Part shown: in pieces, positions 6,800-56,634 of the stretch | Layout: each line of letters starts with the position of its first letter | How positions within the stretch are numbered: the first letter of the stretch is position 1 | NCBI GenBank assembly: GCA_963575745.1 | Contig: CAUYUJ010000048.1 | Span: forward strand, 1-64,000 | From: Prorocentrum cordatum | Taxonomy: Eukaryota | Length of the DNA stretch: 64,000 nt | Direction: 5' to 3' | The notes under the pieces: generated by a model | Database searches by the model: none | What the model was told of the DNA's origin: nothing | Seen by the model: only the letters and a program-made list of their open reading frames with translations | Position numbers and translations under genes: made by a program

Positions 6800-9700
6800 C
6801 CGACCAGCTTCGCGCGCCTGCGCACCCCACAATGATATCCTCACCAGCCCATTCAGAAACGATCGCCAAGATTATTGAAGCCTCTAGGAGGTTATCTAGA
6901 GCCATGCTCGGCCAGAGGCTGTGGGAGGCTATCTTGAGCTATGCTGAGGTATCTTGGGCCCCTCAAGAAAACCATCACTCCACCCAGGGGCCCGAGGGGT
7001 GGGTCGGGGATACATGTTGTTACTGTTCCCCTGTCGTCCCTCCTTCGGACTCGCTCCCACGCGAAACACGATCCACATAGGGCCCTAGACTGGCTCGTTT
7101 CGAGGTTTCGCGAGGTCCAGGGTCTTGCAGGAAAGCTGGCTGCAGGACAGTCTGGGCCGTCATCCTGCACGAGTGCGCCTCGCGTGTCCAGGGCAGCGCG
7201 CTCGCCTCGTACTTCGCTTGCCGAGCTCCTCAGGGTATTGATTCGTCTTGAACGTCACGGAGGACCTTTCAAAACCCACTGGCCACAGCATATGAGCTTT
7301 TGGCATTCGGTCACATTTGTTGTAGCAGCCAGGTGTGCCTCCTATATGAGCACGGGGCAGTGGGAGTACATTATCCGGCAGTCGGAGGAGTACGTCGATT
7401 TTGTGCACTTCTTTGCGGCGGAAGCCCTGCCCAAGCCAGAAACCATCCAGAGGCAGTCGTGGAGAGAGTGGTGTGACCAAGCCCTGGCCACGGCTTCGGG
7501 CAAAGGGGTTTTTCGTTATCTTCGGGAAAAGCCTTTGCTGGATGTTGACGTCACCGAGGGGCCAGACGGTTACACGTCCCTTCTATCAGGGCACCTCGAT
7601 GGAGAATATGATCATTGGATGCGCACTTGGAAAGGGAGCCCCTCCCCATTGGAACAACCGTCCTGGCTTGAAGAGCTTCCCTCGATGGAGATCCCTGAGG
7701 CTGAAGACCCTGATGCCATTGCTTCTGCATCCAAGGCGTTCAAAAAGAACACGTGCCAACCAGACCGGGTACACCCCAGGCACTTCGCTCTACTATGCCG
7801 CCCGGCTCGGGCTGTCTTGGCGAAGATCTTCGTCCTCGTGGACGCTTTGGGGGTCCACCCGGTGCAGTTGCAGGAGGTCCTTATCCTCCTGGCCCGCAAA
7901 GCAAAGGGGCCAGGTCGGCGACCGATTGGCCACTTTCCTGCATTTCCTCGTCTGAAAGGGCGGCTTTTGGCACAGAGGCTCCGCTCCTGGGATGCTCAGA
8001 TGGGAGGGGGGCCAGCCTTCAGCATGGGGAAGGGGCGCTCGGTGGAGGACACTGTCTGGAGGCAGGCAGTGCGCGCCGAATCTGCAGCCACTTCCAGAAT
8101 GCACTTCCTGGCTTTGTTTTGGGATGTCAAACAATTTTACGAACATATTGTCCACAAGGGTCTTGCCGATCAATGTGGTGTCTCAGGTTTTCCCTGGTAT
8201 ATTTTGGCCCAGACTGTACGGTCATACCGATGGCCTCGGCGCATTTTCTTGGAAGGGATCCTGAGTGCACAGATGTGGCCGGATGAAGGTATCATAGCCG
8301 GTTCTGCCACAGCGACCTTCGAAGCGAAAGCATATTTGATCCCTCTGCTCCAGGATCCTGCTGTGTCTGTCACTTGGCAGGCGAGCGAGGGCACAGGCGC
8401 GACGGTACACATCGATGACATGGGCTTGTTCTCTTGGAACACCCTCATCGAAGACTGCGTGGACCACATGGTGACGCTTGCGACTCGCATGTACTCTGGT
8501 TTGGAGAGGGCAAATCTTTCCCTTGCTATGCGTAAGGTCTGCACCACTGCCTCGTCGGCCAAGTTGTTGGACGCGGCTCGGAAACGTCTCCCTGCCGAGC
8601 TCTTTGGTACTGGGGTTCACTCTGCGGCCAACCTTGGCATTGATTTCTCTGCAGGGAAGGCAAAAGGTACCAAGTGAGTATTGCGAGGCCAGCGGTGGAC
8701 CAAGGCACGGGGTCGCATCCGCAAGCTCCGCAACATCAAGCTGACCTCCCCCACTCGCAAGGGTAAGAGCATCAAGCCCAGGTTCTTCAAAGCGTCCGTG
8801 CAGTCTGGACTTGCGTTCGGGGGCAAGGTTCACGGCTATACCCCCTCGGAGCTCGTTCGCCTTCGTCAACATGTCAGGGGTCTGTCAGGGCACCCTGCAC
8901 CTGGGGCCCACGTTGATATCTGGTGGGCGTTTGCTCCGGAGCAGGACCCCATGGACCTGGGTGCTAGTACCCTCTGGCGGTATTGTTACGAGTGGTGGAT
9001 GTTGTCTGGCACGTCGCCACTCCAGCACAGGCATGCCGACATCATGACAGCCAAGGAGTTGCGCAATGCTTTCGAGAGGGCTGTTTTGCATCTCAGGAAC
9101 ACCAAGAAAACATCGTGGCTTGGAAAATCCCGCGGTCCTCTCACTGAGATGCTGCAGTGGGTCGCTCAGGCGGGATGGTCGTTCCAGGATGCTACCCATC
9201 TTGTGAGCCCAGAGGGGCAGGCCTACTCTCTCCTTGAGTTTCCTCCCCAGTGGCGCACCTCCCTTTTTAACGAAAGCATTAAATCTCGTAGTCTGCAGGC
9301 TGCTGTTATATCTAAGCTGGGCGTGAATCCTCACCCCTACGGGCAAGCAGTGCTCGATCAGGGAATGTGGAGAATCCAAATCTGCCGAGTGCTGAGGCAA
9401 GCCAGGAGGAAGCTCAGCACTCGGGAGATGTCGTGCGTGCATGGGCTCTTGGGGGATTGTTTAGTTACTGCCACCCTCTTGTCCAAGTGGGATTATAATA
9501 TTTCCCCGGCATGCCCGCACTGCAACGATGGTACTTTAGACACGCCGTTCCACCGACTCTGGGAGTGCCCTCGTTGCGGGCCCCTCCGAGACCAAGAGCT
9601 GGGGAAATTTGTCGAGCGGGCAGTTGCTGCAGGCCACACCCATCCGCTCTATGCGCATTTGTGGCTTGCTGCCCCTGATGTCGACCCCCCAATGGTAGAT

Positions 9701-10780
9701 TGGGGGTTTGCCTACAGAGATGGGCAGGGGCCGTGCGGTAAGTTCCAATTCGATCCCAGCCGGCCCACTTATGTTGATGGTTCGTGCCTCAATCCCGGGG
9801 TGGACATGCTGGAGAGAGGAGGTCTGGCGGCATGCCAGATAGATGATGATGGCAACCTCCTGCGCGCTGTTTCGTCTCCGCAGCCGCGGATTCTGCCCCA
9901 GCATGCTGTCCATTGTGAGCATTCTGGGCTTGTCATGGCCGGGCTGCATTCGGATCTGGCGCAGTCTCCAGAGTTTGCTGTGGACTGCAGGGCCCTCTTC
10001 AAAGGGATCACACAGCCGGCCTCTAGCCTGAAAGGCGCCACCTTGTTCAGCCACTACTGGAGGGTACTGGCCCATGCCACGCCAGGACCCTGGATTTCTT
10101 CATCACATGTCAAAGCTCATCGTAGCCTAGACGACGCTGTCTCTGAACAGGACCGTGTTCGTATCCTCGGCAACAAAATGGCCGACACTCTGGCCAAAGA
10201 GGCGGCGGGCAAGCATGACCTTGATCCCACCACCCGCTCAGACACGACGATTGCTCTTGAAGAGTTTCTGGAGCTCGTGATTAGTGCAGGGAGGGTGCTT
10301 GCTAGCTGGCCTCCTGCGCGTGAGTACTTTGGCCCCCTGTCCAAGGTCCTTCGGCCCCGCCCTCCTCCCCGCCCTTTTGTCTCCTCCCACACCCCCACCT
10401 GGACAGGCAAGGGCTATCGTTGCACCACGTGTTTAAAACGCATCGCCCCTCACTGCAGAAGGCAGTGCTCTCAAGAATATCCTCATGCCCTCACAGATGC
10501 AATCAATCAGCGCCGTGCCCTTCACCATTCCCTCGATATGGGATGGATTGATGGGAGCAGCATGCCAATTATTTATTGCACACTGTGTGGGGGTTACAGC
10601 ATGGGGAGGGGTACAAAGCTCCAACAGCCCTGCCTCAGTGAAGACCACCGCAGGTGTCAGAATGAGAGGGGTTCTCTGGCACCGGGGCCCCCCCGGGTCA
10701 GCAGCGAGCTCCGCAAGCTCCGCCGGGGCGAAGTGCCTGGGACCACCCTCACCTTCTCCAGAGTCATCCACTTGGGGTGA
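6800..10780 (+). mobile_element. 5'-truncated LINE related to the 49-56 kb element (RT, zinc finger, RNase H, zinc finger)
   Basis: Same downstream domain order and a weakly similar post-APE linker. No APE or ORF1 is recognisable upstream. The 5' boundary is approximate and the 3' UTR probably extends to about 11250. Confidence 0.88.
6941..10780 (+). pseudogene. LINE ORF2 remnant split by one in-frame TGA at 8675-8677
   Basis: ORFs 6941-8677 and 8681-10780 are in the same frame. RT motifs RRPIG, WDVKQFYE, GIIAGS, HIDD (8408-8419), LGID. Zinc finger CPHC..HRLWEC. RNase H motifs YVDGS, CEH, VDC, HVKAH, GNKMAD. C-terminal CTLCG..C. Confidence 0.88.
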
Positions 10781-16477: not shown

Positions 16478-18094
16478 CGTCGTCAGAGAAGCCTGTCTCG
16501 GGCCCCTGGCGGATCGATCTGGTGCGAGATTTGCCACTCTGAGGAGTGTTCGCGGTCGAGAGTTCTGGCCGCGTTTTTGTTTGAAGGCGTCGCGATTATG
16601 TTCACGACGTCGGTCCTGGGGCCTGCGGGGAAAACTCGCCAGGGTTGCCGCCCTCTGGGTCCTAGATGGAGGAGGGGAGGGGGGAGGATGAGGAGGAAGA
16701 GAAGCAGGGAGGGAGAGAGGGAGGGTGGGAGGAAGGAGGGGAGGAGGAGGAGGAGGAGGAGGAGGAGGAGGAGGAGGCCTGCGGAGGAGTAGCTAAGTAA
16801 CAGCAGTAACAGTAGCAGGACCATGTGCACGGACAGGGTGGGAGGAGGAGGAGGCGGTGGATGAGTAGATGTCGAGAAGCAGGCCAATCACAGAAGAAGG
16901 CGGGTGAGGCGCCAGAGAAGGGGGAGGAGGAGAAGGCAAAAGAGTAGCGGGGGAGATGGATGCGCAGCAGCAGACAGAGTCAGGAGGAAATGAGGAATGG
17001 GTCTGGGACAATAACGGCGAAATATTGGTGGCCGAAACGTGGGCACCGCCAAAAGGGAATGCAGATTCTTGTGAGCGCCGCGCGCGCCTGGAGGGCGAGG
17101 CGGGCGCGATACGTTCTTAAGGACAAGCGCAGGGGCGCAAATATAACCGCGCATTGCGCTCTGCGGCCGGGGTTCCCTCGACTGAGGCCGCGCTAGGGCG
17201 CGAATATTTCCGCGCTTCGCTCGGCGCGAAGCGCGAAGCAAGGTTACCGTAGAGGTCGGCTGGTTGGGGTACCTGTGCTGGCGCGCGTGAAGACACCGAC
17301 CGCGCTGTGTCATGGCGCCCAATGCTTCTTGAAGTATCAAGAGATGCTCGCAATGAGAACCCCAGGAGTCCGAGAGCCCGAGTCCATCGCAACCCCTGGG
17401 TTCGAGTCCATCGAAATTTTTGGGTTTTTGTGGTCGCAGTCCTGCAACCAGAAGGACGCAGTGCTTCACTGCATCCTTGCATCTTCGGCCCCTCCTCATC
17501 CAAGTTGCCAGTCACGTGCCACCGAAGCCGTTTCAGCGTGAATACCCGAAGGGCAAACCATCGTTACACCTTCCAGCGGCCCCCCCCCCCCCGCGGGAGG
17601 CCCCTGGTGGCCTCCCCTGGAGGCCGGCCCGACCCCTCCAGCGGGCTTCAAAGCGTGCTGCAGGCGGGACGCGTTCTGCCCCACCGCGAGGAGGCACGCG
17701 GGCGCTCCACGGCGGCGCCGAGGGGCCGGCGGCGGCCCCAAGGCGCGCGGCGCGCGTGCCCGCGAGGGCGGCGGTGGGCGAGCAGGGCGCCGAGGCCCGG
17801 CCGCGGTGCGCACGTGCTGCTGCCGCCGGTGCCAAGCAGAGGGTGCGATGGGCGCTCTCGAGTCTCCACGTGCTGCGTCCTCTTGGGGAACCTCTGGGGC
17901 GGGGCGCCTACGGCCGCCACACACGGGGGAGGACGGAGGAGGAGGATGCAGGGGGAGGGAGGAGGAGGGAAGAGGCCTTATCGCGAGATCCAGAGGAACG
18001 AAGGCTCAAAGTTGTATGATCGCACACTGTGTGGAATTTCTCAAAACTGCTGACACGTCAGGTGTTGTGTGGCAAGCCGGGGGCTACCCAGCAG

Positions 18095-18295
18095 GAGGAG
18101 GGAAGGGAGGAGGAGGATGTGGAGAAGGGAGGAGGAAGAGGATGGGGAGAGAGGAGGAGGAGGAGGAGAAGGAGGAGGAGGAGGAGGAGAAGGAGGTGGA
18201 GGAGGAGGAGGAGGAGGAGGAGGAGGGGGAGGAGGAGGAGGAGGAGGATGCTGCTGCTGATGATGCTGATGATGATGAGGATGATGATAATGATG

Positions 18296-18334
<39 letters not shown>

Positions 18335-18388
18335 ATGATGATGATGACGATGATGATCATGATCATGATCATGATGGTGGTGGTGGTG

Positions 18389-18419
<31 letters not shown>

Positions 18420-18890
18420 GGAGGAGGAGGAGGAGAAGGACAGGGGTGGCAGCAGCACCAGCGTTGATACCGACTTTAGCGGGGAGGGAGGGAAAGACAG
18501 GAGGAAGGGGAGGAGGTGGAGGAGGAGGAGGAGGTGGAGGAGGATCAGCCATGATGGTGATGATGATGCTGATGATGATGCTGATGATGGTGACGATGAT
18601 GATGATATTGAGGAGGAGGTGGAGGAGAGATGATGATGATGATGAGGAGGAGGAGGAGGAAGAGGAGGAGAAGAAGAAGATGGAGGGACAGTGCTGGGAG
18701 GAGGGTGATGAGGAAAGGATGATGCTGATGATGATGCTGCTGATGATGATGATGGTGGTGGTGGTGGTGATGTTGATGGTGGTGGTGATGTTGTTGATGA
18801 TGATGATGGTGGTGGTGTTGATGATGATGATAATGATGGTGATGATGATGATGATGATGATGATGAGAAGGAGGAGGAGGAGAAGGACAA
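18095..18890. repeat. Compound (GGA)n/(GAT)n microsatellite
   Basis: Seen directly; another (GAT)n lies at 19590-19890. Confidence 0.95.
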
Positions 18891-18947
18891 GGGTGGCAGC
18901 AGCACCAGCAGCAGGGGAAGTGCCACCCAACCGCAGATCCCTGTCAG

Positions 18948-19214
18948 GCTGCGGCCGCCCCCGAGGTCGACCCGGGGGTCGCTGCAGACGAGGAGGACGA
19001 GAGGAAATTCAGGGAGCAGCTGCCGAACATAATCCTGAGCATCGCGTCTGTCGTGACTGTCGGGAGCCTCGGAACCATCGCGGTCCAGGGCTCGGAGATC
19101 GAGTTCTTCGTGCCAGCCGCAATGTTCGCCACCTTGGGCGGGGGCGTCGCATTGGCCGTCTCGGGCCTCATGGCAGTCTCGGGCGGGGGCAAGAAGAAGA
19201 AGGGCGGGCAGTGA
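18948..19214 (+). CDS. Probable terminal exon of a host gene encoding a membrane protein with two hydrophobic segments
   Basis: Follows ctgtcAG and reads AAAAPEVDPGVAADEEDERKFREQLPNIILSIASVVTVGSLGTIAVQGSEIEFFVPAAMFATLGGGVALAVSGLMAVSGGGKKKKGGQ*. Codons are GC3-rich and UTR-like sequence follows. It is absent from the ORF track. Confidence 0.6.
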   Translation, partial: AAAAPEVDPGVAADEEDERKFREQLPNIILSIASVVTVGSLGTIAVQGSEIEFFVPAAMFATLGGGVALAVSGLMAVSGGGKKKKGGQ

Positions 19215-19494
19215 TAGTAGTGCCCAGCTGAGGGGCGCGCGGAGGAGATCTGAGCGAGGCGCTGCGCTGATAGCTCTTGGGCACTTGGAGGCTTCTGTGG
19301 TTTACCGTCTTCGCTTCCGTTCATCCCCCCATGTCTCCTCCATAGCGCTCGATTGCGTGCATCTTCGTTTGCTGCATCATCGTGTCCCCGTCGTGTGCGT
19401 TGTTATTAGTAGTTTGGCATGCTTGCCGCCTCTCCTGATGAGACATTATCTGCTTTGTTGCCCACCTCTCTCTGTCTGCCTATATGTTTGCATA

Positions 19495-29390: not shown

Positions 29391-31065
29391 TCGTCGGTCG
29401 TCGTCGTCGTCGTCGTCGTCCCTGGCCGTCGTCGTCGTCCACCAGTCGTCGTCGTGGCCGTCTACCGTCATCGTCGTCAGTTGTCCGTCCTTCGTCGCCC
29501 ACGTTTTTTCAGTTATCGATATCCGTCTTTTTCGTGCGTCATCAGTCGTCAGTCGTCCGTTGTTTTTGTCGTGGTCGTTGTCGTCGTAGTCGTCGCACTT
29601 AGTCGTCGGTGGTGCTCGTCGTCCTTGGCTGGCGGTCGTCGTCCATCGGTTGTCGTCGTCGTCTTGCGTCGTCCGTCCTCCGTCGTCCGCGTCGTCACGG
29701 TCGTCGTTGTGCGTCCTTCGTCCTTCGTCTTTCGTCGTCTGGCGTCCGTCGTCCGTCGTCGTCGTTGTCGTTGACGTTGCGATTGCCGTCGTCGTCGTCG
29801 TCGTCCGCTGACGTTGTCGCCGTCGTTGCCTTCTTCGTCGTCGTCAGCGTTCTTTGCCAGTGGCGCGCAGGGGGAGGGGGGGGGGGGCCCGGATCGAACC
29901 CCCCTCCCACCGCCTCCCCCCCCCTTGAAAAAGAGCCCCCCCTCCCCCACCGGTACGAACCTTTTCCCCCCTCTCGGAGGCGTGGGCCCCCCCCCGGTAT
30001 TCCGGGCGTACCGAATGCTTTTCCCAACCATTCAGTGGTGTTGGGTCTTCGTGTTGAAGAGACAGTCCCCGCGTTCCCTCCTCTCCAGCTCCTCCTCCTT
30101 CGGCTCCTCTCTCCCAACCTTGCCTCTGCCCTCCACGTGTCCTCTCCTACGCTGGCTTCTGGTGTGGTTTTCCGGTTTTGCCTTTTCTGCGGCCCTGCTT
30201 TCTTCGTCTTCCTCCCTTCTCCTCTTCTTGCCGGTTTACTTCTGGGATGTTGCCCGATATTGAGCCACTGGTCAGTCTCAGCCGAGCATCGCCGCGGAGT
30301 GCATGTGTTACTCGAGTGATGCTGTGGTCCCCCATGTCCGATTCGTCCCCTCTGCTGTCCTCCTTCTTGCCCCCTAATATGCGCTGGATAGACAGATGGC
30401 ACGCTGGCGCCATACTATGGCCATGCCTGCGCCATATTCTTGACGCTTCGCGCATCCCCACCAGCCCGTCCAGCAAGGATGCCCAGACGAGTTGCCCTGA
30501 TCAGGGAAGCGGGGGGAGGGGGCAGACAGAAAAACAAGAAGGCTCGGGAAGCCTTCATACCCCAACGGGGGGAAGATGGAGGATGAACCGGAGGAAATGG
30601 GGGAGGACACGGAGGTGGGGGATGGGGGGGGAGGAGAAAGGAGGAACGGGCAGGACGGAGAAGAGATAAGAAGAGGCGGATAAGGACGAGGAGGGCGAGC
30701 AGAAGGGCGAGAGTCCGTCTGGATGCTCCCACGGAGTCTCTTCTTGAGATGTCTTTCGGGAGCTTCTCGGAGCCCTTTTGGAGCGTCTTGGGGGCCTCTG
30801 GGCTGTCACTAGGACCTCTGCGAGCGTCTTCGGAGCCTCGGGGGAGCCTCTGGGGCTTCTGAGGGGCCGCTCGGGAGCCTCGAGGGGGCTTCCTGGGGGT
30901 CTCTTGAGGCCCTGTCGGGGCACTCTCGGGAGCCATGGGGGCCCTCTGGGAGGCTCCGGAGGGGGGTGGGTGGGGTAGAGGAGGGGGGTGGGCGGGGGGG
31001 GGTCGAGGGGGTGCGGACGGGGAGGGTGGAGGGACGCGGAGGGGGGGTGGGCGGAGGTGTGGGCG

Positions 31066-34000
31066 GGCCATGCTATTGCCATACAGCTGCCATGCCGTTG
31101 CCATGCTGCTGCCATGCTGTTGCCATGCCGTTGCCTGGCGCATGCCATGCCGTTGCCGTGCCGTGGCCGGGCCGTTGCCTTGCTGTTGCCATGCTGTTGC
31201 CATGCGCTTGCCGTGCCGTTGCCATGCCGTGGCCGTGCTGTTGCCATGCTGTTGCCATGCGCTTGCCATGCCGTTGCCATGCCGTGGCCGTGCTGTTGCC
31301 ATGCTGAAGCCATGCTGTTGCCAGGTTGTTGCCATGCGCTTGCCACGCCGTTGCCATGCCGTTGCCACGCAGTTGCCATGCCGTTGCCATGCTGTTACCA
31401 TGCTGTTGCCATGGGGCTGCCACGCAGATGGCCATGCGACTGCCACGCAGATGGCACGCAGTTGCCATGCCATGGCGGAGGCGTTGCCATGCAGTTGCCG
31501 TGCGCGTGCCATGCGCGTGCCATGCCGTGGCCGCGCTGTTGCCATGCCGTTGCCATGCTGTCGCCATGCCGTTGCCATGCCGTTGCCATGCGCTTGCCAT
31601 GCCGTTGCCATGCCGTGGCCGCGCCGTTGCCACGCTGTTGCCATGCTGTTGCCATGCTGTTGCCAGGTTGTTGCCATGCGCTTGCCACGCCGTTGCCATG
31701 CTGTTGCCACGCAGTTGCCATGCCGTTGCCATGCTGTTGCCATGCCGTTGCCATGCGGTTGCCATGCCGTTGCCATGCCGTTGCCATGCGCTTGCCATGC
31801 CGTTGCCATGCCGTGGCCGCGCTGTTGCCATGCTGTTGCCATGCCGTTGCCATGTTGTTGCCATGCCGTTGCCATGCCGTGGCCGCGCTGTTGCCATGCC
31901 GTTGCCATGCCGTGGCCGTGCGGTTGCCATGCCGTTGCCATGCCGTTGCCATGCTGTTGCCATGCCGTTGCCATGCCGTTGCCATGCGCTTGCCATGCCG
32001 TTGCCATGCCGTGGCCGCGCTGTTGCCATGCTGTCGCAATGCCGTTGCCATGCTGTCGCCATGCCGTTGCCATGCCGTTGCCATGCGCTTGCCATGCCGT
32101 TGCCATGCCGTGGCCGTGCTGTTGCCATGCTGTTGGCATGCCGTCGCCATGCTGTTGCCATGCCGTTGCCATGCCGTTGCCATGCGCTTGCCATGCCATT
32201 GCCATGCCGTGGCCATGCTGTTGCCATGCTGTTGTCATGCCGTTGCCACGCTGTTGCCATGCCGTTGCCATGCGCTTGCCATGCCGTTGCCATGCCGTGG
32301 CCGTGCTGTTACCATGCCGCTGCCATGCCGTTGCCATGCTGTTGCCATGCCGTTGCCATGCCGTTGCCATGCCGTTGCCATGCCGTGGCCATGCCGTGGC
32401 CGCGCTGTTGCCATGCTGTTGCCATGCCGTTGCCATGCTGTTGCCATGCCGTTGCCATGCCGTTGCCATGCGCTTGCCATGCCGTTGCCATGCCGTGGCC
32501 GCGCTGTTGCCATGCTGTTGCCATGTCGTTACCATGCCGCTGCCATGCTGTTGCCATGCCGTTGCCATGCCGTTGCATGCCGTGGCCGCGCTGTTGCCAT
32601 GCTGTTGCCATGCCGTTGCCACGCTGTTGCCATGCCGTTGCCACGCCGTTGCCATGCGCTTGCCATGCCGTTGCCATGTCGTGGCCGTGCTGTTGCCATG
32701 CTGTTGCCATGCCGTTGCCATGCTGTTGCCATGCCGTTGCCATGCGCTTGCCATGCCGTGGCCGTGCTGTTGCAATGGCGTTGCCACGCTGTTGCCATGC
32801 CGTTGCCATGCCGTTGCCATGCGCTTGCCATGCCGTTGCCATGCCGTGGCCGTGCTGTTGCCATGCTGTTGCCATGCCGTTGCCATGCTGTTGCCATGCC
32901 GTTGCCACGCCGTTGCCATGCGCTTGCCGTGCCGTTGCCATGCCGTGGCCGCGCTGTTGCCATGCTGTTGCCATGCCGTTGCCATGCTGTTGCCATGCCG
33001 TGGCCGTGCCGTTGCCATGCGCTTGCCATGCCGTTGCCATGCCGTGGCCGCGCTGTTGCCATGCTGTTGCAATGCCGTTGCCATGCTGTTGCCATGCCGT
33101 GGCCACGCCGTTGCCATGCGCTGGCCATGCCGTCGCCATGCCGTGGCCGTGCTGTTGCCATGCTGTTGCCATGCCGTTGCCATGCTGTTGCCATGCCGTT
33201 GTCATGCCGTTGCCATGCGCTTGCCATGCCGTTGCCATGCCATGGCCGTGCCTTTGCCATGCTGCTGCCATGCCGTTGCCATGCTGCTGCCATGCCGTTG
33301 CCTTGTCGTTGCCATGCGCTTGCCGTGCCGTTGCCATGCCGTGGCCGGGCTGTTGCCATGCTGTTGCCATGCCGTTGCCATGCCGTTGCCATGCCGTTGC
33401 CATGCCGTTGCCATGCGCTTGCCATGCCGTTGCCATGCCGTGGCCGCGCTGTTGCCATGCTGTTGCCATGCCGTTGCCATGCTGTTGCCATGCCGCTGCC
33501 ATGCTGTTGCCATGCGCTTGCCATGCCGTTGCCTTGCCGTGGCCGTGCTGTTGCCACGCTGTTGCCATGCCGTTGCCATGCTGTTGCCATGCCGTTGCCA
33601 TGCCGTTGCCATGCGCTTGCCATGCCGTTGCCATGCCGTGGCCATGCTGTGGCCTTGCTGTTGCCATGCCGTTGCCATGCTGCTGCCATGCCGTTGCCAT
33701 GCCGTTGCCATGCGCTTGCCATGCGGTTGCCATGCCGTGGCCGCGCTGTTGCCATGATGTTGCCATGCCGTTGCCATGCCGTCGCCATGCCATCGCCGAT
33801 CCATCGCGGTGCCAATGCGGGACGACTTGCTGGACGATCCCCGGGGCGATTTGGGCAGGTCCACGCGGGAAGGCGTTGACTTGCGCAAGTCAGGGGGGTA
33901 TTTTTCAGGAAATTCTTGAAAAATTACCCCCCTGACTCGCGCAAGTCAGGGGGGTATTTTTTTTGGAAATTCCTGAGAAATTACCCCCCTGACTTGCGCG

Positions 34001-48789: not shown

Positions 48790-48841
<52 letters not shown>

Positions 48842-48970
48842 GGTGTTTCGTCGTCTTCGGTTCGTCGTCGTCGGTTCGTCGTCGTCGGTTCGTCGTCGTC
48901 GGTCGGTTCGTCGTCGTCGGTTCGTCGTCGTCGGTCGGTTCGTTGTCGTCGTCGTCGTCGTCGTCGTCGT
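48740..48970. repeat. (GTC)n microsatellite
   Basis: Seen directly; degenerate copies at about 22480-22720 and 29380-29850. Confidence 0.9.
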
Positions 48971-49183
48971 CTCGGGCCTCGTCTTACGCAGGCATTTTCT
49001 TAGTGCCAGGCGTCGTCGCCGCCCGCCGTCCGCCGCCCGCCGTCCGCCGCCCGTCGTCGGCGAGGACGGCGAAGACACCGACGGGATCAGGCGGTTCGGA
49101 CAGTCCAAAGTACATCCCCGTGGGTCTCCTCCTCCTCTTTCACCTCCTCCTCCTCCTCATCTTCCCATCTTCATGATTTTCTC

Positions 49184-49205
49184 TCCGTAGCCATTTTGGC
49201 TCAAG
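49184..49205 (+). other. Full-length dinoflagellate spliced leader (DinoSL) at the 5' end of a LINE
   Basis: TCCGTAGCCATTTTGGCTCAAG matches the DinoSL consensus DCCGTAGCCATTTTGGCTCAAG at 22/22. It is followed by GCTAT rather than a GT donor, so it does not look like an SL RNA gene. Confidence 0.95.
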
Positions 49206-49349
49206 GCTATGCTGTTGCGGGCTGAGCCCGCATTGGCTTTCACGGATACCGCTAGTCCGCGGCAGTGCGAGGGCTCTTGAGCCCGATCAGTTCTTTGCCC
49301 GCACCATAGGGGCGTACGGGCCGCCCGCTTCTCTCACCACGTTCGTGGC

Positions 49350-50510
49350 ATGGGGAGCAATGCGCGCAAGGAGGTGCTCCTTGGCCCCCGTTCCCCCCCG
49401 TGGGGATGTGGGCGCTGCGGGAGAGACGGGAACTGGGCGTCGCGGCTCGTCTGCCGCTGCGGCGCCAAGGCCCCCGAGAGGATCGCGAAGGCCGCCAAGG
49501 CGGAGCACGAGAAGATCGTTGCTGGCAAGGGAGGCGGCCAGGAGCAGCAGTGGCCCCGTGGAGGCGGCGCCAACGGCTCCAGCAAGGACGGCGAGAAGGG
49601 CTTGGCCAAGCAGCTTGCCGACATTAAGAAGCAGCTGGCCCAGCTCCAGTCCACGACGACCACGAAGCAGCCGCAGCCGGCTGCCGCAGCCGACGAGGAG
49701 GACCCTGAGGCCAAGGCTCTGGAGGATGCCAGGCAGTCCCTGGAGACGTTTCGCAAGGTGGCCCAGAGCAAGTCCTCGTCGGAAGCTGCCAAGAAGTTCG
49801 CGAATGAGGAGATCGCGAGGCTGCAGGAGAAGATCACGCAGGCACGGTCTCCCGAGCTCCAGCAGCTCTCCATCACCCAGAAGATCACGCGCGCCAAGGC
49901 CTCGGCGGCTAGCTGGCGCGAGAAGGCTTCGCAGAAGGAGGAGGAGCTCAAGAACATTCAGGGCAAGCTTCAGCAGGAGATTGACAAGTTCAAGGCCGCT
50001 GCAGACGAAGCTCAGGCCCGAGTTGAGGAGCTACAACGGCAAGCAGCTGAACAGGTCGCCAAGCTTGCAGGAGCGGCAGCCGCGGCCCCATCGGCACCTG
50101 CGGCGGCAAGGGCTCCACCTTCGTATGAGCTTGACCCCGAAGCCGTCTTGGCCCAGGGCAGTGAGTTCCAGGATTGGTACCGCAAGTTTCAGGCAGAGAC
50201 CCAGGGGGCCCAAGGTCAGATCCTCATGGAGATGCTGCGGGCCCAGGCTCCTTCTGCTGCTCAGCACGGTGGCCTGCCTCCTTCAGGTGCTGGCGCAGGC
50301 GCCGCTGTTCACGTCGACCAGCCCGCTGGAGACGACGACATCGACATGGAGCTGCTCGGCGCGGACGGGTTCGAGGCCAAGTCAGAGGAGCTGCGCAAGG
50401 CCACGGTGGAGCTCCGCCAGGCCAGGCCCGAGGACCAGGAGGTTCTCAAGCGGAAGGTCGCGGCAGCGGCAGCGGCCCTCGGCCTCGGCAAGCGACAGAA
50501 GAGGCTTTGA
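49350..50510 (+). CDS. LINE ORF1 (386 aa): N-terminal Cys-rich zinc finger plus long coiled coil
   Basis: WGCGRCGRDGNWASRLVCRCG is a RanBP2-like finger. K/E/Q/A-rich helical segments and GC3-rich codons follow, and the ORF lies directly upstream of ORF2. Confidence 0.85.
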   Translation: MGSNARKEVLLGPRSPPWGCGRCGRDGNWASRLVCRCGAKAPERIAKAAKAEHEKIVAGKGGGQEQQWPRGGGANGSSKDGEKGLAKQLADIKKQLAQLQSTTTTKQPQPAAAADEEDPEAKALEDARQSLETFRKVAQSKSSSEAAKKFANEEIARLQEKITQARSPELQQLSITQKITRAKASAASWREKASQKEEELKNIQGKLQQEIDKFKAAADEAQARVEELQRQAAEQVAKLAGAAAAAPSAPAAARAPPSYELDPEAVLAQGSEFQDWYRKFQAETQGAQGQILMEMLRAQAPSAAQHGGLPPSGAGAGAAVHVDQPAGDDDIDMELLGADGFEAKSEELRKATVELRQARPEDQEVLKRKVAAAAAALGLGKRQKRL

Positions 50511-53500
50511 CCGCTCCAAGGTCAAGGACCGCAAGGACAAGACTTGGAGATTCTGGTCTGCGAACGCCAACTCCTGGAGCTCGCTCCAGACGGCCATCGA
50601 CTGGCAGAGGGGTTGGGGTGACGCCACCAGGCCACACGTTCTTTTGTGTCAAGAACATCGGCTCAAAGATGCATCACGTATTCGTTCGGCTGCAGGGTGG
50701 CTTCGGTCTCGGGGCTACCATGGTGCCTTCGGCGCGGCTCGCGCCACAGGGTCTCAGGCCTCTGAGAGCTCGGCGGGAGTCCTCACCGCGGTGTCATCCT
50801 ACGTGGAGTTCGCGGGGCTCGGCCTCCAGAGGTTCGGGGTGGACGCCGCTTTCGGCCCGCGCCTCAAGATAGTCAGGGCTAACATGATTTTCCCTCACGG
50901 TATGTACCTCATGTCGGTCTACGGCCACGTTGAGAAGGTGGCCTACTCTGCGTTCTGGGACATGATGTCGCAGCTTGGCGGCAAGTTGCGCAGGTCCAGA
51001 ATCCCTTGGGTCATCGGTGGTGATTTCAATCAGGACCCGTTCGACGAGAGGATCCTGAAGTGGGCCGACATGCTCCAGGCCACAGTCATCGCCACGCCTG
51101 GGCCGACGTGCTTCTCAGCCCCGGAGGGCTCGAAGATAGATTTCTTTATTGTCAGCCAGGGGCTCGCCTCGTGCGTTTCGGATGTCAGGGCCCTCTACGG
51201 CGCTCCAATGTCGCCGCACGTAGCCATCAGCATGCAGCTCACGGGACCCTCACTGGACATTCCTGTGCACGTTCGTCAGACGTGGAAGGTCTTCCCCACT
51301 GAGCGTCCCATAGGCTGCCTCAACCACCCCATCGAGCTCACCTGGTCTTGGGAGCCAGGAGCAGTACCGTCGATGGGGCTGGAGGACGCTTGGAAGGAGT
51401 GGATCGCGAACTTGGAGGAGGAGCTATGCTGGCAGTTCGACCTTGTGGGCAGGGCTGCACAACCCTACAAGGGCAGGTCTGGCGGCTTCGTGAGGAAGGC
51501 CGTTCCACTGGCAGAGGTCATGAGGAAGGCCCCTGTGTCAGGCAGCGGGGAGGTCATGCGGACATGGAGGTCCCTCGCCTCGATCATCCGACGTGCACAA
51601 GGGCTCCGATGTGGCTTGTTGGAGGCAGGCAAGGAGATGGTGGCCAGGGCGGCAGCGCCGCCAGACGACACGCTGAGCGTCAGGCTGCCCGACTACGCCC
51701 AGGGCCACACGTTCGGGCAGATGGCGAATTGGGCGACGAGCTCGGTGGGTTCGGCTACCGCGCCTCAGGCTACGACGGCCTCCCTCGCCTGGGCCCACTC
51801 GCTCCGACCTGCGAAGGCCGAGACGGCGCCTGCCCCCGCGGGCCCTCTCGGAGTGGAAGGGCCCCGCCCAGCGGGCGAGGCGCCGCATCGGCTGGAGGAG
51901 GAGCTGGTGGGTTGCACGGCGCCTACCACGCAGATCGGTTCGTGTACTTCGATTGCGCCCTCGTCGGGGACCTCGGCTTCCCTCGCCTGGGCCCACTTGC
52001 TCCGACCTGAGAAGGCTGAGACTCCGAACGCCTCCGCACGGCCCCCCCTCTTCGAGGGCGCGCCCTGCCCAGCAGGCAGTCTCGGAGTTTCGCTGGAGGA
52101 GGAGAAGCGGGGTGCCAGGGCGGCAACTTCGCGAATGCCAATGACTTCGTGTTCTTTGGATGGACAGCAGGTGCTGCTCGGGTTGCTTGAAGAACTTGAT
52201 GCCATCGACGGGGCGTCCTTGCACGGCTTTGACACCATCGGGCTAGGCTACCACCAGATTCGGCACACGATTGAGCTAGGTGGGGAGGACCTGGACACGC
52301 TCTGCGTCAAAGTCAGCGACGCGGCCCAGGAGGCCTCGGCAGCGGCTGCCAAAGCGGAACTCCACGAATGGCGTGAGTGGGCCCAGGCCTCAGTCAAGGC
52401 TGGGGGGCGCAAGGCGCACAGGTTCATCAAGCAGTCGCCCCAGGCCTCTGGGCCCAAGGCCCCCGAGGGTTGGGCTTTGCAGGGAGATGGTGCAGTCGAT
52501 GCCATGGTGGAGGAGTGGTCGCAGTACTGGGATGACGCCAAGCAGGACATCTCGGACCAGCAGCACACGATGGCGAACAACTCCGACCTTCCCCGCCCCA
52601 CACTTGATAGAGTTCGACAGGCCTGCCGTTCGTTCGGTCACAACGTTGGGCTTGGTGTGGATTGCGTCAACCCACGTTCGTTTTTGTTGTTAGATGACCA
52701 GTTCATCCTCAGGCTGATCGACGTCATGGTGATGTGGGAGGCGGACCCACGCTTGCCTGAGCGATGGCCGACAATCATGGTCTTCCTCTCCAAGCCAGAC
52801 GGATCTGGGGTCAGGCCCATCGCCCTCATATGCTCCATCCTCAGGGTCTGGGGCAAGGTCAGGCGCGACATGGCCAAGGAGTGGGAAGAGCAGCACGCCT
52901 CCCCTGTGTTTTGGGGGGCCAAGGATCGTGAGTGTGATCGGGCAGGTTGGATCCATCAGATGCTCGCTCACTACGCAGCAGTTCGAGGACTGGACACGGC
53001 CACATTGGCCACGGACCTGGACAAGTTCTACGAGAGGGTTTGCCATTTCGTGCTGTTCAATGAGGGGGAGGGATGTGGGTTCCCAGTCGAGCTCCTCAGG
53101 GCAGCCTGCGGCCTCTATGCTGGCCCCAGGGCAATCAGCTTTCGCGGATGTGTCTCAGGCGTTATCAGGGCGGTGGGCACGGTGCTGGCTGGTTGTTCAC
53201 TAGCCACATCGCTGGCGAGAGTCTTGGTCTACAGGCTACTCACGACGTTGGCGGCAGCTCACCCATCAGTACACATTCGGAACGTAATCGACGACATCAG
53301 CGCGCAGTCCCTGGGCACGGGCTTCCACGTCGTCTCCCAGCTGGGCGAGGTCGGGAGCAAGCTCATTGGGGGCCTGCGCGATCTGCGCCTCGTGCTGTCC
53401 GAGAAAAAATGCAAGTTCCTGGCGTCGTCCAAAAAAGTTGCACATGGATTGCTGAGTAGGTGGAACATGTCCTTCGAACGCCGAGGAGTCATCAGGAGCC

Positions 53501-55788
53501 TCGGCACGGATTGGCAAGTGAGTTCGGCTAGGTTGGCCCCCATAGCCTCCAAGAGGGTTGGGCTCTGCATCAAGCGCTCTGCGAGGCTCCGTAGTCTTAG
53601 GAGGGCGGGCGCCCCTGTTGGCCACATTCAGCGTGCGGGCCCCCAAGCCTCCGCTCTCTGGGGCTGTGCTGTTAGGGGGCTCCCGTGGTCTTCCCTCAAC
53701 AGAGTCCGTCAGCAGGCCCTTTTGGCCCTGGCTCCCATGAAGCGGGGCGCCTCGGTGGGTCTCAAGCTGCACTCCTTTAGGCTCGGTAGGAAGGTCGACC
53801 CTGTGCTTTTGTATTTCCGCCAGGTCGTCTTTGAATGGGCCAGGGCCCTCTGGGAGGCCACCCCCAAGCTAGAGATCCTGCAGGCCACCTTTGAAGATGC
53901 CGTCCGTGTGCTGGCCAACACAAGCAGACCCTGGTCTCGGGCGACTTCGCCCGCTCACGTGTACGTTCTGGCGTGTGGTGACTTGGGCTGGACAGCACAC
54001 TCGGCACGTTCTGTCACTCTTCAGACAGGAGAGCAGATTGATCTGCTCCGCCTGGCGCCGCGCGTGGTGGCCGACCTGGCAGGAAAGGCTGCCAGGGAGA
54101 TGTCGGATTACCGCGCCCTCAGCTCTCGTGCTGGATCCAGCTCCTGGTGCCGTCCGATTTTCTGGCAGCCAGTCGAGGGTCTCCTAAGCAGGACGACCGC
54201 CACCTGGACCCGAGCTCATCAGAACTCGTTTAGGGCGGTTGTCTCGGGCACCCATTGGCCTCAGGAGAGGCTGCATCGGCACGGCCTCGCCGCGTCGCCG
54301 TTGTGTTTGCTGTGTAAAGGGGAGCCTGGGACCGTGTTTCACCGTCGGTTCGTCTGTGAAGCTTGGGAAGAGGACCGCAGGCAATTTCTGTCGGACGAAT
54401 GCCGACAGGCTGCACGCCTCGTTCGCTCCTTGGGCGGAGATGCGGAGCTCTTTGCTAATGGCCTCTTCCCTTCTCCTCGTGAGCTCGTCCCTCCTCCGCT
54501 CCGCTCGAGTGAGTGTCCGATTATGTGGATTCGCAAGCCTGAAGACGGGATGCTCAGAGGCCGCCTCTTTACAGACGGGTCGGCCCTGCACCCGTCCGAC
54601 GAGTCCCTCCGACGGGCTGGATGGAGTGTGGTGCAGGTCGACTCGGAGGGTTCTCTAGTCGCTGCTGCCTTCGGCCCTGTCCCCTGGGATCTCTCGCCCT
54701 TCCAGAGGGCGCGAGACGGGGAGGACTACGCTTTTTATATGTTGCCGCAGCTCGCGATCCCGCATGAGGTCGAAGGCATTTGGTCGGACTGCGAGGGCTC
54801 GGTGACAGCTGCTCGCGCTCGGGTGGCGTCTGTCTCCGCACAGAGCCCGCAGGCCCATATGTGGTCTCGGATCCATGCGGCGTTTGAGGAAGGGCTCCCT
54901 GTCTTCAAAACGAAAGCCCACCTCTCGGAGACTGACCTGGCCATGGGCACGTCCACGCCGTGGGAGCGGAAAGCGAATGCTATCGCCGATGTCCTGGCCA
55001 AGCGGGGAGCGACCCAGCACCCGTCGGTCCAGCAGGCCGCCAGTCAGGTCCGTGGTCTCAGCTTGTTGGGTCGGGAGGTGGGCCAGTGGGCTGGGCGGCA
55101 AGAGGTGCTTATGTCTCAAAGGGGCTGGGTGGACTCCCAGGGGCTCCCTGAGGTCTCCGCGGCGCCTAGGGGCAGTAGTAGGCCTGCTCGGCAGCCCGCC
55201 TGTCCCCGCGCTTGGGTGCACTTTAGAGCGGTCCTCTCGGATGTCTCCCAGGGCCCCCAGGACCCCGAGTTAGGAGTGTTGGTGCAGCTTACAGGGCACT
55301 GCCTTCGAGCCACCAGTGTGTTCAACGAGGCTGGAGCCAGCGTGATCGCTGGCCACAGGCTCATCTGTTGTGTGGCGTGCGGGGCCTTCGCTTGGGGCAA
55401 TGTGCGGGCCCTCTCCCAGGCTTGCCATCCCGCCCAAGCGGGCAAGGGACTGAGGCAGCAGAAGGCACGCCTGCTGGCACGCAAGTTCCCCAGGTGGCTT
55501 TCAAAGTATTCGGGCTGGTCGCTGGGCGAGTTGGAGATCCCGACCCCGTCTGATCTCCTGTCTCTCGCCTCCACTATCCTAGCTGCGCGCCCGAGGCCCG
55601 CAGCGCCGTCTGCCCATCCCGTTTTCCGTGCAGGACCGCCGTGGCGCCCCAGCTGGACACCTGGTGTCCTGCTCTCGCGCTTCGGCGTCTCTCTCGTGAC
55701 CCTCCCGTTCTGGGAGGCCCAGGCGCGCGCCGCCCTCGGCGAGGGGCAGGAGGCGGGCGGGGCCCCCGAGGATTGCGAGGAGGTGTAA
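50506..55788 (+). CDS. LINE ORF2 polyprotein: APE endonuclease, reverse transcriptase, zinc finger, RNase H, C-terminal Cys motif
   Basis: APE motifs WSANANS, LCQEH, SAGV, SVYG, IGGDFN, KIDFF, SPH (about 50545-51240). RT motifs RPIAL, DLDKFYE, LAGCSLA, VIDD (53284-53295). Zinc finger CLLC..HRRFVC. RNase H motifs TDGS, GED, SDC, KAH, NAIAD (about 54565-55010). C-terminal CVACG..C. The start is placed at the putative frameshift site; the track lists this frame from 49345. Confidence 0.93.
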   Translation, partial: FDRSKVKDRKDKTWRFWSANANSWSSLQTAIDWQRGWGDATRPHVLLCQEHRLKDASRIRSAAGWLRSRGYHGAFGAARATGSQASESSAGVLTAVSSYVEFAGLGLQRFGVDAAFGPRLKIVRANMIFPHGMYLMSVYGHVEKVAYSAFWDMMSQLGGKLRRSRIPWVIGGDFNQDPFDERILKWADMLQATVIATPGPTCFSAPEGSKIDFFIVSQGLASCVSDVRALYGAPMSPHVAISMQLTGPSLDIPVHVRQTWKVFPTERPIGCLNHPIELTWSWEPGAVPSMGLEDAWKEWIANLEEELCWQFDLVGRAAQPYKGRSGGFVRKAVPLAEVMRKAPVSGSGEVMRTWRSLASIIRRAQGLRCGLLEAGKEMVARAAAPPDDTLSVRLPDYAQGHTFGQMANWATSSVGSATAPQATTASLAWAHSLRPAKAETAPAPAGPLGVEGPRPAGEAPHRLEEELVGCTAPTTQIGSCTSIAPSSGTSASLAWAHLLRPEKAETPNASARPPLFEGAPCPAGSLGVSLEEEKRGARAATSRMPMTSCSLDGQQVLLGLLEELDAIDGASLHGFDTIGLGYHQIRHTIELGGEDLDTLCVKVSDAAQEASAAAAKAELHEWREWAQASVKAGGRKAHRFIKQSPQASGPKAPEGWALQGDGAVDAMVEEWSQYWDDAKQDISDQQHTMANNSDLPRPTLDRVRQACRSFGHNVGLGVDCVNPRSFLLLDDQFILRLIDVMVMWEADPRLPERWPTIMVFLSKPDGSGVRPIALICSILRVWGKVRRDMAKEWEEQHASPVFWGAKDRECDRAGWIHQMLAHYAAVRGLDTATLATDLDKFYERVCHFVLFNEGEGCGFPVELLRAACGLYAGPRAISFRGCVSGVIRAVGTVLAGCSLATSLARVLVYRLLTTLAAAHPSVHIRNVIDDISAQSLGTGFHVVSQLGEVGSKLIGGLRDLRLVLSEKKCKFLASSKKVAHGLLSRWNMSFERRGVIRSLGTDWQVSSARLAPIASKRVGLCIKRSARLRSLRRAGAPVGHIQRAGPQASALWGCAVRGLPWSSLNRVRQQALLALAPMKRGASVGLKLHSFRLGRKVDPVLLYFRQVVFEWARALWEATPKLEILQATFEDAVRVLANTSRPWSRATSPAHVYVLACGDLGWTAHSARSVTLQTGEQIDLLRLAPRVVADLAGKAAREMSDYRALSSRAGSSSWCRPIFWQPVEGLLSRTTATWTRAHQNSFRAVVSGTHWPQERLHRHGLAASPLCLLCKGEPGTVFHRRFVCEAWEEDRRQFLSDECRQAARLVRSLGGDAELFANGLFPSPRELVPPPLRSSECPIMWIRKPEDGMLRGRLFTDGSALHPSDESLRRAGWSVVQVDSEGSLVAAAFGPVPWDLSPFQRARDGEDYAFYMLPQLAIPHEVEGIWSDCEGSVTAARARVASVSAQSPQAHMWSRIHAAFEEGLPVFKTKAHLSETDLAMGTSTPWERKANAIADVLAKRGATQHPSVQQAASQVRGLSLLGREVGQWAGRQEVLMSQRGWVDSQGLPEVSAAPRGSSRPARQPACPRAWVHFRAVLSDVSQGPQDPELGVLVQLTGHCLRATSVFNEAGASVIAGHRLICCVACGAFAWGNVRALSQACHPAQAGKGLRQQKARLLARKFPRWLSKYSGWSLGELEIPTPSDLLSLASTILAARPRPAAPSAHPVFRAGPPWRPSWTPGVLLSRFGVSLVTLPFWEAQARAALGEGQEAGGAPEDCEEV

Positions 55789-56634
55789 CTCGTTTTCGGT
55801 TTCATTTCGGCGGTCGGCGGCTTGGACGTCTTCCGCTCTCGTCTCATCTCACCTCTCCTCTCCTCCTCCTCCTCCTCCTCCTCCTCCTCCTCCTCCTCCT
55901 TCCTCCTCCTCCCCCTCCTTCTCCTCCCCTCCCCCCTTCCTCCTCCTCCTCCTCCTCCTCGACCTCCTCGACCTCCTCGACCTCCTTCTCTCCTCCTCCT
56001 CCTCCTCCTCCTCCTCCTCCTCCTCCTCCTCCTCCTCCTCCTCCTCCTCTTTTCTTTCCCACAATCTCAGAGGAGGCAAAGCTACCCTCCCCCCATGCCT
56101 TTCCGTCGTTTTCCCCTCTTGGGCCTCTTGGGATGCCCTCGTCACTACTGCTGGATTCGCCTCGAAATCCTGGTCAGAACGCACCCGAGGAGAGGTCCAG
56201 GGAGAAGCGGTATCGGTACCTTTTGGTCTCTCCAGATTATGTTGATTTGTCTTGGCTGTGACGGCAGGTGATCCTGCCATCGCCGTGCGCAGAGTTGGGC
56301 ATTCCGAGGCCCTTCAGAGCCTCGTCGTCGCCAGGAGCTGAGTTTTTTACTCGAGCACATCACGCGCGTTATGTGGCGTCCAACCCACCCACCCACCCAG
56401 TAGATAGCACAGCGTTCGCCGCTGCACCCATCCCCGTTGCAGCAGCGCCTGCTGCTCAGCGCACAGGTTTGCTGCTCGCAGTGCGCGCGCAGTGTGCCTG
56501 CCGTGAGCGCGGGCACGTGCTTGTGTGGTAAGTTAGAGGTACGTGGGGCGCGCAGGCTGCTGTGGCACCCACACGTGCGCGGTGGCGCACTCACGTTGGA
56601 AGGGACGAGCAGTTCGGCGTGCCTCCTCCCCGTA

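Follow-up and report, generated by a model that had tools for sequence, protein, structure and literature searches.

A window of 64,000 nucleotides from the dinoflagellate Prorocentrum cordatum (GenBank assembly GCA_963575745.1, contig CAUYUJ010000048.1, positions 1 to 64,000 of the forward strand; all coordinates below are those of the window) carries a long interspersed nuclear element (LINE) from 49184 to about 55850. The element is full-length, open and of the APE type, and its first 22 nucleotides are a complete dinoflagellate spliced leader (DinoSL). Spliced leader (SL) relicts on retrogenes are well known; here an SL heads an apparently intact LINE. On balance, we consider it probable that the element is a young full-length copy, reverse-transcribed from an SL-capped element RNA whose SL had been gained by ordinary trans-splicing.

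The sequence at the 5' edge conforms to the published DinoSL, DCCGTAGCCATTTTGGCTCAAG, where D stands for T, A or G (PMC7245778). Along the + strand, CATGATTTTCTC is followed by the 22-nt block TCCGTAGCCATTTTGGCTCAAG and this by GCTATGCTG. The 21-nt core of the SL matches the 64,000-base window once, both strands considered, even when up to three mismatches are allowed, and none of 100 shuffled controls contained any match. No shortened or truncated SL relict was found beside 49184-49205. The SL is the outermost 5' sequence of the element and stands against an unrelated CT-rich flank; pyrimidines account for 88% of the 60 nt upstream of it, a share that 1.6% of window positions attain. The initial annotation, according to which the element opens with a complete 22-nt DinoSL directly after CCT-rich flank and 144 nt before the AUG of the first open reading frame (ORF1), is thus borne out by the exact match, by its being the sole SL in the window and by the coordinates.

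The surroundings of the SL are not those of an SL RNA gene array. Neither a tandem SL array nor linkage to 5S was found in the window, and no Rfam family, 5S or tRNA was detected anywhere in it. Rfam search of 48900-49700 at E <=10 returned a single chance miRNA match, located upstream of the SL. The single SL in 64 kb, together with the lack of 5S and of any Rfam family, places the locus outside an SL RNA gene array. The fold of the leader between SL and ORF1 is not unusually stable (z = -0.59).

Both reading frames are uninterrupted, as had been proposed: ORF1 encodes 386 amino acids and the ORF2 frame of 1762 codons is open. ORF1 has a Cys-rich motif towards its N terminus and also contains a long stretch rich in Ala, Glu, Lys and Gln; it gave no Pfam family and no Atlas match. 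ORF2 lies in the +1 frame relative to ORF1, in a reading frame that is open from 49177 to 55785. The heptamer at the ORF1 stop is identical to the +1 shift site of bacterial RF2, in which CUU_U followed by UGA(C) is conserved (PMC5009743). Judged from this context, ribosomes leaving ORF1 probably enter ORF2 at CUU UGA C, either through a +1 shift or because they re-initiate there. The two-frame layout is not a private mutation, because a protein from a JGI contig, 88% identical to ORF1, ends at the same residue (KRQKRL, then stop), and because a contig of run X1, one of four public runs described below, spans 50249-50817 without a gap.

For its domains, the window ORF2 was aligned with 11 relatives (12 sequences). 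A profile of this family finds human LINE-1 ORF2p at E 7e-10, from APE through reverse transcriptase (RT), and R2 at 1e-8. The RT domain itself scores 22.9 bits with Pfam RVT_1, under the cut-off of 29.6. Of its two aspartates, D932 is invariant in the 12-sequence alignment and D931 is present in at least 90% of it; in an alignment of 5 sequences both are invariant. The RNase H piece of the window ORF2 has no Pfam match, and two relatives show weak Pfam RNase_H matches. Search of PDB with the single ORF2 sequence returned 0 matches. When six pieces of the element were searched with Pfam, APE was the sole endonuclease family to appear. The catalytic residues of APE, RT and RNase H had been described as present, which agrees with the APE match above its Pfam cut-off and with RT and RNase H residues that are invariant in the alignment.

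At the other end, pyrimidines account for 98% of the 60 nt that follow 55850, a share attained at 0.2% of window positions. CCT-type repeats make up about 1% of the window. Since both flanks are nevertheless CT microsatellite, SL and LINE look like one inserted unit. Coordinates of all features are collected in Table 1.

Table 1. Features of the SL-headed LINE and of its edges
Feature	Position	Strand	Remarks
5' flank	49126-49183	.	(CCT)n microsatellite, decaying to CT-rich up to the first base of the SL
DinoSL, TCCGTAGCCATTTTGGCTCAAG	49184-49205	+	22/22 nt exact, complete
Leader, SL to ORF1 AUG	49206-49349	+	144 nt
Degenerate inverted SL copy	49223-49246	+	17 matches over SL positions 1-20, two gaps
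Leader segment	49244-49286	+	many other contigs match, then run on unlike after 49286; palindrome GGGCTCTTGAGCCC inside
ORF1, 386 aa	49350-50510	+	ATG at 49350, TGA at 50508-50510
ORF2 frame, 1762 codons + stop	50500-55788	+	no ATG ahead of APE domain
ORF1 stop context, AGG CUU UGA C	50502-50511	+	ORF2 runs on in +1 frame
APE-type endonuclease domain	50623-51201	+	Pfam Exo_endo_phos 35.1 bits, cut-off 24.5
Two direct repeats of ~150 nt	51776-51921, 51974-52122	+	72.7% alike; linker between APE and RT
Reverse transcriptase domain	52792-53433	+	IDD at D931, D932
CCHC zinc knuckle	54304-54357	+	C1269, C1272, H1281, C1286 invariant; weak zf-RVT match
RNase H domain	54574-54990	+	D1359, E1408, D1430, H1474, D1497 invariant in 12 sequences
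3' untranslated region (UTR)	55789-55854	+	short (~65 nt), no poly(A), exact 3' end undefined
(CTC)n microsatellite	55855-56049	.	66 units; element tail, target, or both

Other copies and relatives of the element

Contigs of four public runs (X1 to X4, from three studies) were compared with 48800-56200. The numbers of matching contigs per run are 231, 730, 154 and 81; they are 88-99% alike to the window, mostly 90-99%, and cover nearly the whole element body. The element is thus dispersed in multiple copies (81-730 contigs per run in all four runs), as is typical of LINEs. Evidence was drawn from positions outside 48800-49046, which is free of contigs in three runs, and outside the repeats at 48800-48979, 49126-49169 and 55831-56059, which were skipped in the comparison.

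Position 49214 is informative as to the 5' end. The window has G at this position, and T is found in 3, 13, 3 and 2 contigs of the four runs. These contigs differ from the window and therefore represent other copies. From there to the contig end they extend 32, 33, 31 and 24 letters, which takes them back to about 49181-49190; no contig is reported to go further upstream. Since they reach this far, all or most of the SL is joined to the leader in other copies. The contig-end distances may be read as contigs breaking where the flanks start to differ, at the first base of the SL. By this measure, the SL-to-leader join recurs beyond this locus, in all four runs. In another copy the leader is moreover tied to ORF1, because a contig of 1182 nt, about 91.5% alike, runs from 49263 through ORF1.

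Protein relatives are numerous: a library-wide search detected 4486 at E <=1e-3, 394 of them at E <=1e-30. The best full-length relatives are 38-40% identical, and one fragment of 215 amino acids, from P. cordatum, is 95% identical. The nearest relatives that bear a name belong to P. cordatum and Amphidinium carterae. LINEs of P. cordatum are reported to be young, with Kimura distances of 0-10 (PMC10666404), those of Symbiodiniaceae being described, by contrast, as ancient remnants. Of all P. cordatum gene models, the one with the largest number of SL-bearing transcript variants is reported to have no known function (PMC10666404).

In other sequence collections, DNA scan of metagenome contigs with a 22-nt leader word lacking the SL gave 0 matches. 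Protein scan of metagenome contigs with the 5-sequence alignment gave 3 loci from 213 pattern matches; in these three, no SL-like word (<=4 mismatches) was found and no comparable 5' end is reached. Viral contigs gave 0 matches with ORF2 alone, 0 of 130 with alignment A2 and 0 with the head word, and prokaryote genome contigs gave 0 of 49 with alignment A2. A 20-nt SL/head word had 4 matches in prokaryote contigs, about 1 being expected by chance; all four lack the rest of the SL and were rejected.

Two more distant relatives are described here in their own right. Within the window, the element is present in this copy only, apart from a distant RT at 7460-10216 (23% identity). It belongs to a second LINE-like frame at 6938-10777 (+), which tblastn aligns at 23% identity to ORF2 residues 624-1507 (E 7e-25). 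This frame has no Pfam match at 1e-4 and no SL nearby. On the metagenome contig L120:1-3786, a relative 40% identical to ORF2 is found in which an ORF for a 2OG-Fe(II) oxygenase (AlkB-like; PF13532, 76.4 bits) replaces the coiled-coil ORF1. The oxygenase and APE-RT ORFs share one frame and have a single stop codon between them.

Origin of the spliced leader

According to the explanation that we favour, the element would be one recent, apparently functional copy of a high-copy dinoflagellate LINE. As dinoflagellate mRNAs in general do, its pre-mRNA would most likely have received the SL by trans-splicing, the acceptor lying immediately ahead of GCTATGC. In target-primed reverse transcription the copying would then have run to the extreme capped 5' end of the RNA, and SL and LINE would have entered a CT-rich microsatellite as a single unit. 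ORF1 is coiled-coil-like, and APE, RT, CCHC knuckle and RNase H are all carried by ORF2. That the SL came from trans-splicing, that insertion took place in this way and that the element is still active are what we infer from the sequence.

Re-spliced retrogenes usually keep a 15-nt relict (PMC12014239). Because this relict is absent here, daughters of a few master copies fit better than repeated re-splicing. It is possible that the terminal AG of the SL restores the leader in each cycle; an internal AG would be a more conventional acceptor, since the CT-rich flank is followed by CCGTAG.

Several points weigh against the view that the element gained its SL when its own RNA was trans-spliced, or against parts of this explanation. 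The origin of the SL is judged from DNA. Presence of the SL-to-leader join elsewhere is deduced from a single measure, the contig-end distances, rather than from the letters themselves. As to repeated cycling, absence of the 15-nt relict is unfavourable. At the edges, no target-site duplication of at least 7 nt was found next to the SL, and poly(A) is absent, the 3' UTR running into (CTC)n; the combination of target-site duplication and defined 3' tail that marks a LINE insertion is thus not seen, and (CTC)n may be the tail. The remaining points concern the first ~100 nt. Contig variants of this head outnumber those of the body (13 at 49214 versus 1-2 at body positions in run X2), and 6, 4 and 4 contigs of X2, X3 and X4 match up to 49286 and then diverge. 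The AAG of the SL is followed by GC, a donor-like start. An inverted SL-like stretch is present, with a score reached by 0.8% of random windows, and a T-run (TTT, 49238-49240) ends about 57 nt from the start of the element.

These features of the head form the basis of the main rival explanation, in which the head derives not from a trans-spliced leader but from an SL RNA that was copied, or from some other small and abundant repeat with an SL, fused to a LINE. We regard it as unlikely, although it deserves more weight than any other alternative. The first ~57-115 nt would represent either an unspliced SL RNA, exon plus intron, or an SL-headed short retroposon. Fusion would have occurred when RT switched templates on reaching the LINE RNA's 5' end, or through recombination, and the head would now be common to several element families, comparable to the 5' signature that trypanosomatid LINEs have in common with their short derivatives.

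Each feature of the head can be followed with this rival in mind. GC is a dinoflagellate donor, and the Fugacium sequences reported downstream of the SL all begin with GU or GC (PMC6616646), so that GC after AAG is as in Fugacium SL genes. On the other hand, a published alignment legend marks C in the donor as exceptional (PMC3101222), and the Fugacium "SL gene" supplement sequences are, by eye, unlike 49206 onward. The stretch 49223-49246 is complementary to the SL and could pair with it, exon-intron pairing being typical of SL RNAs. The predicted SL-leader duplex has -23.7 kcal/mol, compared with -17.1 +/- 2.2 for shuffled sequences; this energy is reached by 0.75% of 2000 shuffles and by 1% of 2000 genomic windows. 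The T-run gives a length of 57 nt, near the reported size of dinoflagellate SL RNAs, which are <=56 nt, or 50-60 nt, and have their 3' ends in T tracts (PMC3101222, PMC5029490). The shared head, however, reaches at least 49286 and is longer than the core dinoflagellate SL RNA.

Contig variants bear on the same question. The first ~80 nt of the leader are found in more of them than the element body, and several contigs contain small indels at 49241 and 49243. Summed contig depth is also higher over 49047-49293 than over the body, but depth cannot rank gene parts, and contig counts were therefore preferred. Because contigs diverge after 49286, the head (~100 nt) is also joined to sequence other than the LINE body (at >=88% likeness). 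What lies past 49286 could belong to subfamilies that have diverged, to short derivatives or to unrelated sequence. Comparison of these continuations with element and window gave nothing convincing, the best match being a 14-nt word at 55560. Against an SL RNA origin stand the lack of an Rfam family match and of an array, and the fact that no contig extends more than ~33 letters 5' of 49214, since SL gene arrays would share upstream spacers. Full-text literature search for the SL-plus-intron letters returned only an unrelated paper. In view of the GC after AAG, the inverted SL-like stretch and the T-run at ~57 nt, we question the claim of the initial annotation that no SL intron is visible.

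A further explanation, to which we assign a low probability, connects the LINE with commoner short relatives that share its ~100-nt head and would use the host SL system instead of an internal promoter. CT-rich microsatellite targets would provide a polypyrimidine tract ahead of the AGs of the DNA-encoded leader; read-through transcripts would be re-spliced, and the complete SL would be restored in every cycle. The anti-SL stretch 49223-49246 would help to recruit or position SL RNA, and the same enzyme would be the long-sought source of SL-tagged dinoflagellate retrogenes.

The SL might also derive from an older retrogene or relict at the insertion site, with the LINE having landed adjacent to it and having its true 5' end downstream of 49205. 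SL relicts are indeed very common in dinoflagellate genomes, with over 20% of the genes of two Symbiodiniaceae carrying them (PMC5585692), and the ends of the element are not defined by a target-site duplication. Nevertheless, in four runs the SL-to-leader join is seen again in contigs that have T at 49214. Landing 0 nt from a complete SL is unlikely by chance when there is one SL in 64 kb, and both outer flanks are of the same microsatellite kind. Because the join recurs in other copies, we consider such a neighbouring relict very improbable. For the same reason misassembly at a repeat, which would have joined SL and flank to the LINE, is hardly credible: the junction does lie beside microsatellites excluded from contig comparison (49126-49169) and no independent record was shown to bridge flank and SL, but the join recurs in contigs of four runs, and over 6.6 kb the element remains colinear and open.

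Neighbouring sequences and spliced leaders on viral contigs

About 100-300 nt past the (CTC)n tail, a short segment at 56119-56200 has a very large number of matching contigs in each of the four runs. It represents another high-copy repeat, with many loose contig ends at 56150 and 56198. Far upstream, CCGCGCCATTTTGGCTGCG occurs twice, at 2572-2590 and 3085-3103 (+), 513 nt apart and with similar sequence downstream; both copies share the SL core GCCATTTTGGCT, not the SL ends. A piece of an MFS transporter at 18020-19228 (+), on the same strand as the LINE, is the only Pfam-recognisable host-like ORF in the 88 long frames scanned out of 124. A region of 3.5 kb, 30418-33945, is open in several frames on both strands.

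The exact DinoSL core was also found in 119 stretches (L001-L119) of IMG/VR viral contigs, mostly from bins of giant-virus metagenome-assembled genomes, with a median GC content of 20%. There it occupies 136 distinct sites directly behind recurring AT-rich motifs, for example TTTTTATTTTTAAATATAAATTTTA, TTTTTATTATTATTTTACTAAACCA and CTAGTA (L011:11484, L020:8001 and L024:8001-8121 may serve as examples). At many of these sites, by eye, a variable leader follows and then an ATG within 70 nt. The sites have the look of genes whose spliced leader is encoded in the DNA and preceded by a common promoter-like motif. Viruses might here mimic the 5' ends of host mRNAs, or AT-rich alveolate DNA might have been binned as viral. 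In these stretches (1.45 Mb), tblastn with ORF1, ORF2, P0001, P0002 and the second RT gave 0 matches at E <=0.1. Among the titles listed in a literature search, none concerned DinoSL in viral contigs.

Comparison with known systems

Full-text search of the literature found no description of a LINE beginning with DinoSL. The closest parallel is provided by DinoSL-relict retrogenes, that is, recycled processed cDNAs, in which the retro-copied unit likewise opens at its 5' edge with a DinoSL encoded in DNA (Slamovits and Keeling 2008, cited after later work; Song et al. 2017, PMC5585692). In the latter, DinoSL relicts upstream of retroposed genes are treated as established, and RT-related Gene Ontology terms are enriched among relict-bearing genes. 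In our case what was copied is a whole retrotransposon with open frames, and the SL is complete (22/22), without the 15-nt relict and without a poly(A) tail. As for the RT behind dinoflagellate retroposition, the literature, as far as consulted, calls it unidentified or favours Ty1/copia (PMC5585692 among the sources). Dinoflagellate genomes are full of SL-tagged retrogenes, and an intact APE-type LINE offers a concrete candidate enzyme for making them. A LINE DNA copy that starts with a complete SL would show that the machinery can copy SL-capped RNA to its end, and the SL-to-leader join provides a marker for testing the role of LINEs in retrogene formation.

A more general question is how a LINE keeps a usable 5' end in an organism where trans-splicing makes the 5' ends of mRNAs. 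L1Tc/ingi of trypanosomatids are likewise APE-type LINEs in a trans-splicing organism (PMC1874656, PMC8190864). Their 77-nt signature, Pr77, is, like the head described here, a short 5' sequence seemingly common to many more sequences than the body. Pr77 is reported to be an internal promoter that bypasses splicing and gives SL-less transcripts (PMC1874656, PMC8190864), whereas here the head begins with the leader itself.

SLACS, CZAR and CRE of trypanosomatids and NeSL-1 of nematodes are retrotransposons of the non-LTR (long terminal repeat) kind with a restriction-like endonuclease, residing inside tandem SL RNA genes. They resemble our element in that a non-LTR retrotransposon is joined to SL sequence. 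The element described here differs from them by its APE domain, by the presence of one SL in 64 kb with no array, and by its CT-microsatellite flanks. It had been distinguished from the CRE/SLACS/NeSL type at the outset, and we arrive at the same classification: APE was found, and neither a restriction-like endonuclease downstream of RT nor insertion into an SL gene was observed.

U6/L1 chimeric retrocopies arise by template switching to a small nuclear RNA. A template switch of this kind would give a LINE a small-RNA head, as is supposed when the head is taken for a copied SL RNA; if the head were SL-RNA-derived, it would represent a new kind of small-RNA/LINE fusion. Finally, human LINE-1 (ORF2p structures 8sxt and 8uw3) likewise has two ORFs and an N-terminal APE followed by RT. 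Identity to it is very low, and our element contains in addition RNase H and a CCHC knuckle, has a microsatellite tail in place of poly(A), and carries ORF2 in the +1 frame without an AUG.

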